Made by a program: the position numbers and the translations under genes. From the IMG/VR virus record IMGVR_UViG_2541047722_000019: a DNA stretch of 29,355 bases. One strand, 5' to 3'. Origin of the DNA: a virus. Lineage: Duplodnaviria > Heunggongvirae > Uroviricota > Caudoviricetes. Shown in pieces: positions 13,363 through 16,601 of the stretch; the stretch's first letter is position 1, and every line of letters starts with the position of its first letter. The notes below the pieces were generated by a model that was given only the letters and a program-made list of their open reading frames with translations, searched no databases and was not told where the DNA came from.

Positions 13363-13674
13363 TCACTCACTCCAGTATTTTTCCGGGCGGGCAATACCGG
13401 GGCCGCATTCCACGGTGTATTCCACAATATCCACACCAAGGCGACTCAGATCGGCAAACCAGTCACCGGAAGGCCTCTTCTCCAGTTCCACCATCTTGCG
13501 ATCTGCCAGGTAATCAAGCTCACGGCGCAGCTCCAGTTGCGTGGTGTCCGGGTAGATGGCGCGGGACACTTCCAGCAGCAGCGTCTCGCTGGCGGTATAA
13601 GGGCGGGTTTTGTTCAGGGCAACCAGCAGACTCCAGCGCAGGGATTCGCGGCGTACCCGGGTAATATCGACCAT
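13363..13674 (-). CDS. Hypothetical protein
   Basis: 103 aa; ATG overlaps upstream stop; between lysis cassette and terminase genes. Confidence 0.4.
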   Translation of the reverse strand: MVDITRVRRESLRWSLLVALNKTRPYTASETLLLEVSRAIYPDTTQLELRRELDYLADRKMVELEKRPSGDWFADLSRLGVDIVEYTVECGPGIARPEKYWSE

Positions 13675-14000
13675 TATTGACCTCCGGTATTGCGGTACTG
13701 CTGTACCACTTCCAGTTTGTTGTAGAGCGCGTCCAGTTTGGCCTCGATGACTGTCTGGCCACGGATATAATCCTCGCGACGGACATAATTCAGCGGTAAA
13801 TCCGCTTTAAATCGCATAAATTCTTTTTCCAGTTCGCCCCAGTTGGAGGCGGACTGTTGCAGGGCCTGCTCAAGGGAGGCGAATCGTGCCGCCTGGCGTT
13901 CTTCTGTTTTACTGAACAACCATTTGGCGAGCCCTCCCACAAACCCCATGAAGGTGAGCAAAAAACTCACCACCGTCCAGAATTCAACCTGCAGTGTCAT
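13674..14000 (-). CDS. Membrane-anchored coiled-coil protein (possible lysis accessory)
   Basis: 108 aa with N-terminal hydrophobic segment FWTVVSFLLTFMGFVGGLAKWLF then a helical region; GGAAGGA upstream of ATG; immediately after the spanin pair. Confidence 0.4.
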   Translation of the reverse strand: MTLQVEFWTVVSFLLTFMGFVGGLAKWLFSKTEERQAARFASLEQALQQSASNWGELEKEFMRFKADLPLNYVRREDYIRGQTVIEAKLDALYNKLEVVQQYRNTGGQ

Positions 14001-14650
14001 TTCTGTAATCCTTCCCGTTCATCCAGTAGCGCGTTTATCTGGTTTCGCCAGCGACGACATTGCCCTGCGTTGTCGATGATGTTGGCAAGGACGTCAAGCT
14101 GGGAGACACCCGAATTGCGTAACCGGGCGTCAGCGGTTTCAGGTTGCCCGGTCGCTGCGCCAGTGCCGGTGCCAGCGGCGGCAACTGAGTCTGAATGACC
14201 GGTGTCGACGGATGCGTTGTCGTATCCGAGTGCGGCGTTGTACTGGCGCACGAAACCGCGAGTAAACACGCACTCAATGGGATGGCTCTTACCTTTTTCA
14301 TCAATCCAGCGCTGTGTGACATCGTTAATTTGCCCCTGTAGTTGTTTGTTCTGGTCCTCCAGTTGAGCAATCTGCTCAAGATAACCAGCTTCAGCCCGTT
14401 GCCCGGCGGCTACCTGCTCCTGATAACGCTCAGACCATGCGCGCAACGCCGCCACCTCACGCCGGGCCTGTTCTGCCCGGTATCCGTCAAAATCCGCCTG
14501 CAGGCGGCTGAGCGCCGCCTGACCGTCAGCGGAGGCCCGGTCGTGGCCTGTGCTGTATCCCAGCCACCAGATCGCCAGCAGGAAGGTGTTCAGGAGAATG
14601 GCCAGCATAATGACCCGCCACGGCAGCGACCGTAACTTACGTACCCACAC
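13997..14650 (-). CDS. i-spanin (Rz-like)
   Basis: Short basic N-terminus then TM (RKLRSLPWRVIMLAILLNTFLLAIWWLGY), followed by a long Q/A/E-rich coiled-coil. GTG 14650 has GGGGAGGGG upstream; in-frame alternatives are ATG 14752 and ATG 14608. Confidence 0.6.
   Translation of the reverse strand: MWVRKLRSLPWRVIMLAILLNTFLLAIWWLGYSTGHDRASADGQAALSRLQADFDGYRAEQARREVAALRAWSERYQEQVAAGQRAEAGYLEQIAQLEDQNKQLQGQINDVTQRWIDEKGKSHPIECVFTRGFVRQYNAALGYDNASVDTGHSDSVAAAGTGTGAATGQPETADARLRNSGVSQLDVLANIIDNAGQCRRWRNQINALLDEREGLQK
14035..14301 (-). CDS. o-spanin (Rz1-like lipoprotein) embedded in the i-spanin gene
   Basis: Alternate frame wholly inside 13997..14650. Lipoprotein signal MKKVRAIPLSACLLAVSC followed by a Pro/Thr/Ser-rich periplasmic domain. 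Confidence 0.6.
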   Translation of the reverse strand: MKKVRAIPLSACLLAVSCASTTPHSDTTTHPSTPVIQTQLPPLAPALAQRPGNLKPLTPGYAIRVSPSLTSLPTSSTTQGNVVAGETR

Positions 14651-15374
14651 AGCTTGCCCCTCCCCATGAGAGATAACGCGGGGCCAGCGTGAACAGGATG
14701 CGCTGGGGATAATGACGGTTCTCCCGCCAGCTGGCAGTGCTGCGTCCGGCATTCACCGTGGCGACATGACCAAACCAGCGGGTGCTGTCCAGCCCTTTTT
14801 GTGATGCAAGCCGCCTGTCCCGCTGTACCCAGCCCAGACCACCGTTATAGCCCGACAGTGTCATGGCCATACGCTCGCAGTCACTGGCGGCGCTGACGCG
14901 CTGCCACAGCCAGCGGTCATAGCTGACCAGCGCCCGGATGGCCCATGCCGGATTAAATGGCTCACGGCTGTTAAGCCCCGGCATCAACTGACTTATCCAG
15001 TCGGCGGTGGCGGGCATGAACTGCGCCAGTCCCTGAGCGCCAACCGGCGAGATCGCATCAGGTCGCCAGCCGCTTTCCTGATGCAGTTGCGCAGCGAAAT
15101 CAGCCACCGGCGCAGACAGTCCCCATTCAAGCCGGGCATTACGGATCACATCATCGCGATACTGCAGCGCTGCCTGCGGAGGCTGCGCTGCGCGGGCCTG
15201 ACTGAAGAAGCCGCCACACCAGAGCAACATTGCGACAAAGAATACCCGTGCCATATGAACCAGAAAGGTCCCGGCGCGGACTGACAGGCGTTCGGTTCTG
15301 ATGAAGACCCTAAAGGCTTCGAAAGCCAGTTTCAGGGACATGCATACAATCCAGGTGATCTGCGGCCAGTTCAT
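14637..15374 (-). CDS. Endolysin, lytic transglycosylase with N-terminal signal or SAR-like segment
   Basis: Family-1 transglycosylase motif HQESGWRPDAISPVGAQGLAQFMPATA. Hydrophobic N-terminal segment MARVFFVAMLLWCGGFF. True start may be ATG 15254 (M41) rather than 15374. Confidence 0.75.
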   Translation of the reverse strand: MNWPQITWIVCMSLKLAFEAFRVFIRTERLSVRAGTFLVHMARVFFVAMLLWCGGFFSQARAAQPPQAALQYRDDVIRNARLEWGLSAPVADFAAQLHQESGWRPDAISPVGAQGLAQFMPATADWISQLMPGLNSREPFNPAWAIRALVSYDRWLWQRVSAASDCERMAMTLSGYNGGLGWVQRDRRLASQKGLDSTRWFGHVATVNAGRSTASWRENRHYPQRILFTLAPRYLSWGGASCVGT

Positions 15375-15376
15375 GA

Positions 15377-15727
15377 TTAAAGCCCCATCGCAACAGCCAG
15401 ACAGACCGCTGCAACAATCAGTGCACGGCGGATTAACGCAGCAGAAAACACCAGGTGAAGGCCGGTCTGTACCGGGAAACGCCCATCAGCCATCAGCCTG
15501 TCGTCATGTTTCAGGTACTGACCGGGACGGGCTTTGGGGAAGAGCGAACGGTCAAGCCAGTAACCCAGCACTGCTGCCAGCGTGATGAGTGCCAGCTTGT
15601 AGATCACAACAGGCAACTGCTGTGGCGAGACCAGAGCGATGGTGCCCAGCAACAGCACTGAGGTCAGCAGCCAGCCGCTGAGGCGAGGTTTTTTAACAGG
15701 GGGAATGAATTTTTTCAGGTTTTTCAT
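15377..15727 (-). CDS. Holin-like membrane protein (first late cistron)
   Basis: Three predicted hydrophobic helices. ATG 15727 has GGAG 6 nt upstream; the track ORF extends to GTG 15760. Sits directly upstream of the endolysin gene. Confidence 0.45.
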   Translation of the reverse strand: MKNLKKFIPPVKKPRLSGWLLTSVLLLGTIALVSPQQLPVVIYKLALITLAAVLGYWLDRSLFPKARPGQYLKHDDRLMADGRFPVQTGLHLVFSAALIRRALIVAAVCLAVAMGL

Positions 15728-15857
15728 GTGTGTCTCCTTGTCTGGTGGAGACAGCATCACAAATACAGGGCGCGAAGGATTTTAAAGCGCGTTAAGAGAG
15801 CCGGGGATACGGGATGTGCAGGATAAACGATGAATTATTCACAGAGGAGAATACGAT
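15728..15857. promoter_or_regulatory. Divergent promoter region (late operon leftward, cargo operon rightward) with RBS-overlapping inverted repeat
   Basis: 130-bp gap between divergent starts 15727 (-) and 15858 (+). Perfect inverted repeat TGTCTCC(9)GGAGACA at 15731-15753, whose one arm is the GGAG ribosome-binding site of the late gene. Confidence 0.4.
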
Positions 15858-16601
15858 ATGACGCAGACACTGAATCCGGTCATCACTGTCACCGTGTCCG
15901 GTCCTGTGGGCAGCGGTAAAAGTTACATATTGGCGCGGATAGAGGAAGTGGTGAAACAGGAATTCGGGGGCAGCGTCATTGTCGATGCTGCAGACGTAGA
16001 TGATGAGCGGCGTATGAGTGGCGATGATCTGACGACCTGGCAGAAGCCACGGGGTGGCACAGTGATCAGGCTGGAGGAATACACGGGACAGGGCCTGTTG
16101 TCATACGGCGAGGAGCGTATCTGTCGGACGAATGAGCTGCTGGATGTTATATGCCCCACGGGCCGGCAACCCTGGATACTGCCCGATGCACTGCATGCCA
16201 CCATTGCGGCACTGATGACAGTTTACGATCAGGAGCTGCTCATGAAGGAGCTACGTAAACTCACCGGTCAGCCAACAGAATGTTTTTCTGCCCCGAAGTA
16301 CGGGAAACAGGAACACATCCCGGTGAACACGCTCCCCGTTAACCAGCCTCCCCGGTTCTTCGACGAATACATTCTGACACCGGAAAATAAAGCTGAGCAC
16401 GAAGAGATCAAAGCGGCGTTGTTCCGGGAAATCAGGAAGATTGCTGAAATGCAACTGGGGGGCGGGCTGGACAGAGTGATGGCGAGAGGAGAATGGGAGT
16501 CGCTGTTTGAAAGAGTTTCCCCGGAATTACTTCCCCTCGCACTGGCTATCGGGATTATGCAGACAGCGGATAAACCTCACTTACGTTCATTAAACACGTA
16601 A
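15858..16601 (+). CDS. P-loop NTPase of unknown function
   Basis: ATG with AGAGGAGA 7 nt upstream. Walker A GPVGSGKS at residues 15-22. No resemblance to phage structural, lysis or transposition proteins that I recognise. Confidence 0.6.
   Translation: MTQTLNPVITVTVSGPVGSGKSYILARIEEVVKQEFGGSVIVDAADVDDERRMSGDDLTTWQKPRGGTVIRLEEYTGQGLLSYGEERICRTNELLDVICPTGRQPWILPDALHATIAALMTVYDQELLMKELRKLTGQPTECFSAPKYGKQEHIPVNTLPVNQPPRFFDEYILTPENKAEHEEIKAALFREIRKIAEMQLGGGLDRVMARGEWESLFERVSPELLPLALAIGIMQTADKPHLRSLNT

Follow-up and report, generated by a model that had tools for sequence, protein, structure and literature searches.

Sequence evidence for an embedded Rz/Rz1-like spanin pair in the lysis cassette of a BcepMu-like prophage of Escherichia coli

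Introduction

Two-component spanins pair an i-spanin, anchored in the inner membrane, with an o-spanin, a lipoprotein of the outer membrane. In the embedded architecture the whole o-spanin gene is contained in the i-spanin gene, in another reading frame (Summer 2007; Kongari 2018). This is the architecture of the lambda prototype Rz/Rz1, and it accounts for 182 of 528 two-component systems, beside 228 overlapped and 118 separated pairs; embedded o-spanins typically start at 0.4-0.5 L and end at 0.9-1 L, where L is the length of the i-spanin gene (PMC6139136). Among the embedded spanin families of SpaninDB are BcepMu/phiE255 and B3/JBD18/JBD25/JBD67 (Kongari et al. 2018, PMC6139136). The lysis cassette of BcepMu consists of holin, endolysin, Rz and Rz1 (PMC2771037); in its record (NC_005882) gp23 is an Rz-like spanin and gp24 is 'Rz1, out of frame, embedded proline-rich protein', and the annotation of B3 points to 'BcepMu Rz and Rz1'. 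Here we describe an Rz-like gene and the lipoprotein frame inside it in the virus record IMGVR_UViG_2541047722_000019 (IMG/VR; Caudoviricetes), a stretch of 29,355 nucleotides that we call the window. Judged from its sequence, the region very probably encodes a two-component spanin of the embedded, lambda Rz/Rz1-like type, in the lysis cassette of a BcepMu-like transposable prophage of Escherichia coli.

Results

An embedded gene pair homologous to BcepMu Rz and Rz1

The pair comprises the following two genes.

13997 to 14650, minus strand: i-spanin (Rz-like), 217 residues, from GTG 14650; identified by phrog_1403 and by homology to BcepMu and B3.
14035 to 14301, minus strand: o-spanin (Rz1-like), 88 residues, +1 frame, wholly inside the i-spanin gene; identified by its open reading frame (ORF), homology to BcepMu gp24 and conservation.

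The product of the outer gene matches the family phrog_1403, 'Rz-like spanin', over its full length (E=5.2e-88; residues 1-217 on profile positions 1-212 of 212). It is ~31% identical to the B3 'putative Rz lysis protein' in an alignment covering 96% of its length and, by pairwise BLASTP, 30% identical to BcepMu gp23 Rz over 195 aligned positions (E=4e-10). A homologue with 92.7% identity is labelled 'lysis system spanin subunit' by the Prokaryotic Genome Annotation Pipeline (PGAP). The link to BcepMu was made through the B3 annotation note, the NC_005882 record and pairwise BLASTP; a tblastn search of phage records with the i-spanin did not reach BcepMu at E<=1e-3. The embedded protein, which from ATG 14301 reads MKKVRAIPLSACLLAVSC..., is 39% identical to BcepMu gp24 Rz1 over 62 positions that include the signal (BLASTP, E=1e-5).

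The geometry of the pair is that of the embedded class. The o-spanin gene is offset 349 nucleotides into the i-spanin gene, covers Rz residues 117-205 (the end of the first helix, the linker and part of the second helix) and stops 38 nucleotides before the i-spanin stop, so that it lies entirely within the i-spanin gene in the other frame; its start at 0.53 L is close to the typical range and its end at 0.94 L falls within it. The mature o-spanin is short and proline-rich, with 71 residues, 11 Pro (15.5%), 21 Ser plus Thr and Ala at +2, and is probably unstructured. Furthermore, the pair clusters with lysis genes: a Holin_2-3 holin and an endolysin with an SLT domain lie directly upstream, with the frames overlapping or abutting.

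An earlier note on this DNA, made from its letters, had proposed an Rz-like gene at this place with a lipobox-bearing, proline-rich protein embedded in it. Its coordinates and description are correct, the embedded protein from ATG 14301 is identical to the one it quoted, and the matches to phrog_1403 and BcepMu gp24 agree with its naming of the two products. Its view that full embedding is the rarer arrangement is contradicted by the published counts given above. It had also recommended a comparison with the spanin pairs of Mu-like phages, which was informative for BcepMu and B3; Mu itself was of no use here, as Mu gp23 has no detectable similarity to the i-spanin (BLASTP E=0.97, membrane segment only).

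Comparison with BcepMu, B3, lambda and Mu

The locus resembles that of BcepMu in most respects. Both carry a +1-frame embedded o-spanin that stops 38 nucleotides before the i-spanin stop (the SpaninDB offsets agree), two cysteines in the o-spanin signal region, the conserved motif RP(G/A)...PL(T/I)PGYA, and the order holin, SLT endolysin, Rz with Rz1 inside it, gp25, gp26, small terminase. The differences are that BcepMu Rz starts at an ATG with a 4-nucleotide overlap, whereas here a GTG is used with a 14-nucleotide overlap; that the mature BcepMu o-spanin has 56 residues and an extra cysteine (MVCPRP), compared with 71 residues and no extra cysteine; and that the BcepMu endolysin has a single N-terminal signal-like segment where the window has two hydrophobic segments. 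SpaninDB assigns families at a threshold of at least 40% identity over at least 40% of the periplasmic domain, and with 30% for the i-spanin and 39% for the o-spanin the pair is homologous to that of BcepMu but falls outside the clustering threshold of its family.

In the B3 group, ORF27 of B3 likewise has a +1-frame lipoprotein with LAAGC and the core LKQRPGPPP.LTP.YW. The o-spanins of JBD25 and TAB03 end 38 nucleotides before the Rz stop, as here, whereas those of B3 and JBD67 run 7 nucleotides past it. The group also differs in having an extra small ORF between endolysin and Rz, and in its Pseudomonas hosts.

With lambda Rz/Rz1 the locus shares the +1-frame embedding, an i-spanin built of N-terminal membrane anchor, helix, linker and helix, a short, proline-rich o-spanin with a lipobox and a residue other than Asp at +2, and a position downstream of holin and endolysin. 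Lambda differs in that its spanins have no detectable similarity in sequence to the pair (neither protein matches Pfam Rz or Rz1), in the size of its proteins (153 and 60 residues, compared with 217 and 88 here) and in its endolysin, which stays cytoplasmic until the holin triggers. Mu also has a transposable-phage lysis region followed by genes in the gp25, gp26 and gp27 positions, and its o-spanin, too, was missed when the genome was first annotated (Chamblee et al. 2022, PMC9239132). Unlike the window, Mu has a gp23 of only 128 residues with a 23.1 described as overlapping, and it lacks a holin and uses the gp25 releasin (DUF2730) (PMC9239132).

The embedded frame is conserved and constrained

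Ten further Enterobacterales loci from different genera (70-75% i-spanin identity) were fetched and scanned, together with the phage and E. coli loci, for an alternate-frame ORF with a start codon and a lipobox. The taxa with related loci were Escherichia, Klebsiella, Pantoea, Erwinia, Mixta, Trabulsiella, Limnobaculum, Apirhabdus, Symbiopectobacterium, Pseudocitrobacter, Burkholderia and Pseudomonas. A +1-frame lipobox ORF was found in 20 of the 21 related loci, down to ~30% Rz identity, which is the level of BcepMu and three B3-group phages, all of which carry the lipoprotein; the sole locus lacking it is that of Mixta mediterraneensis, where the Rz gene is split by ~2 kb. The proposal of an embedded gene had been made dependent on conservation of the frame in relatives, and that conservation is now seen. 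In addition, the o-spanin core L-x-x-R-P-G...P-L-T-P-G-Y is common to the BcepMu and B3-group o-spanins.

Constraint was assessed on a codon alignment of 11 enterobacterial genes. Residues 1-64 of the o-spanin are 86-98% identical to the window, compared with only 60-70% for the part of Rz that is not overlapped. At Rz third positions the mean pairwise difference falls from 0.329 before the overlap to 0.067 over these 64 residues, and the proportion of variable third positions falls from 82 of 116 to 16 of 64 (Fisher p=4e-9). Within the same stretch the Rz first positions, which are the wobble positions of the o-spanin, differ by 0.112, above the 0.067 of the third positions.

The remainder of the o-spanin behaves differently. 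Residues 65-88 (14035-14106, minus strand) are 79% conserved in the closest relatives but 50-58% conserved in more distant enterobacterial ones, and substitutions there follow the Rz codon frame (third positions 0.164 versus first positions 0.051). The last 24 residues are thus probably free of functional constraint of their own, their sequence being dictated by the C-terminal helix of the i-spanin, a pattern in line with the statements on extreme C-termini in PMC6139136.

As a null model we used 5000 synonymous-codon shuffles of the window Rz gene. At least 88 open codons occurred in the +1 frame in 46% of them, and ORF length was rejected as evidence for the o-spanin for that reason. An ATG followed by a basic n-region, an uncharged h-region, a lipobox Cys and at least 30 further residues arose in 14 of the 5000 shuffles (0.3%).

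These data bear on a sceptical explanation, namely that the embedded +1 ORF is an untranslated by-product of Rz coding and that the outer gene works alone or with a partner encoded elsewhere. The ease with which Rz codons leave the +1 frame open is in its favour, yet a complete export signal is reproduced far more rarely than an open frame, and ORF, signal and lipobox are retained in nearly all loci examined in spite of the divergence of Rz. The ORF is not called in any annotated record that we inspected, only 6 protein clusters among 5.8 billion match it, and it matches neither Pfam nor PHROGs, the latter having no family for it; however, missing o-spanin coding sequences are a documented annotation failure (196 of 528 cases, PMC6139136), and the ORF is homologous to the annotated Rz1 of BcepMu and to the +1 lipoproteins of the B3 group. 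The strong suppression of Rz wobble positions within the overlap also speaks for a translated frame, and the cassette holds no other lipoprotein gene. We therefore consider the by-product explanation extremely improbable and retain the embedded ORF as the o-spanin gene.

Some relatives carry damaged spanin genes. Besides the Rz of Mixta mediterraneensis with its interruption, a 1-nucleotide deletion just after the GTG in Erwinia tracheiphila creates an ATG start further in, and the Rz frame of Candidatus Erwinia dacicola ends prematurely. Such loci have the look of prophages in decay.

The i-spanin probably starts at a GTG within the endolysin gene

The frame of the i-spanin is open from ATG 14752 to the stop at 13997, and GTG 14650-14648 lies 14 nucleotides upstream of the last base of the endolysin stop codon. 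It is preceded by a Shine-Dalgarno (SD) sequence.

14657 to 14665, minus strand: SD sequence of the i-spanin, GGGGAGGGG, within the endolysin coding region; anti-SD duplex of -12.0 kcal/mol.

The GGAGG core of this SD ends 8 nucleotides before the GTG, and the duplex is far stronger than those at ATG 14608 (-5.3 kcal/mol) and ATG 14752 (-2.2 kcal/mol). The GTG and an SD (GGAGG or GGGGG) are kept in 13 of 14 aligned relatives. In four relatives, in-frame stops 6-30 nucleotides upstream of the GTG exclude a start further upstream. Submitters to GenBank, or PGAP, also used the GTG in PhiKM, KP12, ST131 strain 4993 and UPEC129; in the 92.7% relatives the choice is that of PGAP.

Alternatively, translation might begin at ATG 14608 (203 residues, MLAILL...) or at ATG 14752 (the longest ORF, 251 residues). 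ATG is the commoner start codon, and PGAP annotates ATG 14608 in the 100%-identical genome of E. coli SK1144 (WP_001299256.1); that start, however, has a weak SD, would cut into the membrane segment and leave no basic N-terminus, and most relatives have CTG or another codon in its place. No stop interrupts the frame between 14752 and the GTG in the window, but the upstream ATG has no SD and is excluded in the four relatives with in-frame stops. Moreover, the match to the phrog_1403 profile begins at residue 1 of the GTG form, and the four records just named use that form. Either ATG is very unlikely to be the start, and GTG 14650, which the earlier note had preferred to the ATG-based call on account of its SD and its overlap with the endolysin 3' end, is the best-supported candidate. 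Correcting the start to the GTG restores the basic cytoplasmic N-terminus that sets membrane topology.

Predicted architecture of the i-spanin

The N-terminal part of the GTG form contains a single predicted membrane anchor.

14558 to 14614, minus strand: membrane segment of the i-spanin, residues 13-31, VIMLAILLNTFLLAIWWLG; Kyte-Doolittle 19-residue maximum of 2.23.

It is preceded by MWVRKLRSLPWR, of net charge +4 (positions 1-12 hold four basic and no acidic residues), and the protein beyond the segment has an acidic net charge. The computational prediction is thus an N-in/C-out topology with an N-terminal membrane segment, as expected of an i-spanin. An AlphaFold2 (AF2) model, computed from the single sequence without an alignment and used for secondary structure only, places a helix at residues 9-122 (block-mean predicted local distance difference test scores of 74-95), a low-confidence linker at 147-171 and a second helix at 184-216. 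The predicted order of membrane anchor, helix, linker and helix is that of the Rz-type plan. Spanins are expected to have a periplasmic cysteine for an intermolecular disulfide (PMC6139136), and the i-spanin has two, Cys127 and Cys198, which are periplasmic and conserved in all enterobacterial relatives aligned.

Lipobox and start of the o-spanin

A lipobox was recognised in the o-spanin precursor by a PROSITE-type pattern match.

14248 to 14262, minus strand: lipobox L-A-V-S-C, residues 14-18 of the o-spanin, with Cys18 at 14250-14248.

The sequence MKKVRAIPLSACLLAVS, followed by the Cys and then by Ala at +2, fits the PROSITE-type pattern; there is no Asp at +2, and the Ala agrees with sorting to the outer membrane. 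The lipobox Cys of B3 (LAAGC) lines up with Cys18, and Cys29 of BcepMu falls within one or two residues of Cys18 in alignments, and within one in the pairwise BLASTP. SpaninDB gives the mature BcepMu o-spanin as 56 of 84 residues, which makes its Cys29 the second of the two BcepMu cysteines. On the strength of the B3 alignment, of this choice of the second cysteine and of the length of the h-region, we favour Cys18 as the probable lipidated residue. The mature o-spanin has no cysteine besides this candidate.

Several observations weigh against the assignment as a whole or against its details. Expression and function of the prophage pair are predictions from its sequence, the AF2 model of the i-spanin is a single-sequence one with a predicted template modelling score of 0.31, and neither protein matches any Pfam family, Rz and Rz1 included, even at E<=10, the weak coiled-coil matches of the i-spanin being taken as noise; NCBIfam has none either. 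The shift in the ratio of first- to third-position differences is on its own not significant (p=0.13), and mosaic recombination or constraint on Rz itself could explain part of the higher conservation of the overlap. With regard to the signal, position -3 of A-V-S-C does not conform to the strict [LVI][ASTVI][GAS]C consensus, a second cysteine, Cys12, sits in a perfect L-S-A-C six residues upstream, which makes the processing site uncertain, and ATG 14301 is almost without an SD (-2.4 kcal/mol).

The last three points fit a variant of the assignment in which the gene pair is as described but the o-spanin starts at ATG 14322, with lipidation at Cys12 in addition or instead. This start would add MSHSAGL (95 residues in total) and has the better SD (-5.7 kcal/mol); both ATGs are conserved, ATG 14322 in all enterobacterial relatives that retain the o-spanin ORF, and longer n-regions are likewise seen in the precursors of BcepMu and B3. 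L-S-A-C agrees with the strict lipobox consensus given in PMC6139136, but processing at Cys12 would leave a hydrophobic core of only ~6 residues (AIPLSA), and both the B3 alignment and the choice of the second BcepMu cysteine by the SpaninDB curators point to Cys18. The mature protein is the same whichever of the two ATGs is used. We regard this variant as a real possibility, though not the one we would choose, and keep ATG 14301 and Cys18 in the description of the pair.

Proposed mode of action

The steps by which the pair may act are modelled on the lambda paradigm (PMC6139136). The i-spanin would be held in the inner membrane by its anchor, the helical domain projecting into the periplasm, and the Lol lipoprotein-sorting pathway would deliver the o-spanin, lipidated at Cys18, to the outer membrane, where it would sit in the inner leaflet. 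Bound to each other through their C-terminal halves, i-spanin and o-spanin would make up a complex that reaches across the periplasm and passes through the peptidoglycan mesh. The intermolecular disulfide required for function would probably come from Cys127, Cys198 or both, as the mature o-spanin contains no cysteine other than the lipidated one. Once the holin triggers, the SLT endolysin would degrade the wall and free the spanin complexes. By fusing the two membranes, these complexes would disrupt the outer one, so that virions are released.

The lysis cassette and its host

The segment of the window that holds the lysis locus matches chromosomal prophages of E. coli with 100% identity, and 638 of 5426 complete E. 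coli genomes contain similar prophage loci. The closest phage record is PhiKM, which is classified in Bcepmuvirus. Transcription of this coupled late operon on the minus strand would run from the holin through the SLT endolysin, the i-spanin with its embedded o-spanin, a gp25-like and a gp26-like gene and a Mu gp27-like small terminase to the large terminase; the order of the cassette genes is the same in BcepMu, and Pfam recognises the holin, the endolysin and the downstream small terminase. A scan of 13500-16200 for promoters and terminators found none above shuffles, which is consistent with one operon. The neighbours of the spanin pair are as follows.

15377 to 15727, minus strand: holin, the first gene of the lysis cassette; Pfam PF13272 Holin_2-3 (E=1.5e-41) and phrog_1528 holin (E=8e-55, residues 12-127).
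14637 to 15374, minus strand: endolysin, a lytic transglycosylase with an SLT domain; PF01464 SLT (E=2e-14) and phrog_669 endolysin (E=5e-67).
13674 to 14000, minus strand: gp25-like protein of 108 residues with an N-terminal membrane segment; BcepMu gp25 homology and phrog_462.

The start of the holin in an identical genome is placed by PGAP at ATG 15727 (116 residues). The mechanical ORF reaches back to GTG 15760 (127 residues), and the PHROG and Pfam profiles align only from its residue 12 or 27.

The endolysin is 61% identical to BcepMu gp22. Its stop codon is at 14639-14637, and the last 14 nucleotides of its gene overlap the i-spanin start. It had been noted as a lytic transglycosylase with an N-terminal hydrophobic segment, which the SLT match supports; there are in fact two such segments (15180-15374, minus strand), the first reading MNWPQITWIVCMSLKLAF... 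and the second ending in VFFVAMLLWCGGFFSQARA directly before AQPP, with an AxA-like site. This two-segment N-terminus is common to most of the enterobacterial relatives and B3, the endolysin of TAB03/Tom33 carries a lipobox (LLSAC), and that of BcepMu shows a single signal-like segment. In sequence, the part separating the two segments sets the window/PhiKM subclade sharply apart from the others, and compensating frameshifts may be the cause.

The gp25-like gene is coupled to the i-spanin stop by an ATGA overlap and belongs to the same operon. Its product is 53% identical to BcepMu gp25 (E=3e-35) and ~87-99% conserved across the enterobacterial relatives. It has the position, size and topology of the Mu gp25 releasin; against Mu gp25 and DUF2730, BLASTP gave no alignment, hhalign gave a probability of 1.8%, and there was no DUF2730 match. 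The enterobacterial BcepMu-like clade combines a holin, a two-segment SLT endolysin and a membrane-tethered protein of 108 residues that is translationally coupled to the spanin stop. One could imagine that this protein is a non-homologous, releasin-type regulator of a membrane-anchored endolysin and acts alongside the holin, that P-x-L-x-x-R-P-G...P-L-T-P-G-Y is the docking site for the i-spanin, and that the last 24 residues of the o-spanin are a free-riding tail; taken jointly, we consider this set of proposals unlikely.

Annotation of the locus

The arrangement described here is an ordinary and well-known one for lysis genes, and the locus is a sequence-diverged, largely unannotated member of the BcepMu/B3 embedded spanin lineage, which it extends into Enterobacterales. 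Its main value lies in annotation, as databases miss the o-spanin and sometimes place the i-spanin start wrongly. The o-spanin is unannotated in all the records inspected, and of the six gene calls that overlap it in the 5.8-billion-cluster protein collection none is named spanin. The locus is thus an instance of a documented and common problem, the survey that counted the missing o-spanin coding sequences having also found 34 wrong i-spanin starts (PMC6139136). Near-identical copies of the i-spanin are named 'hypothetical protein', 'lipoprotein' or 'lysis system spanin subunit' by PGAP, with two different starts; the label 'lipoprotein' probably leaked from the embedded gene or from older annotation of the BcepMu family.

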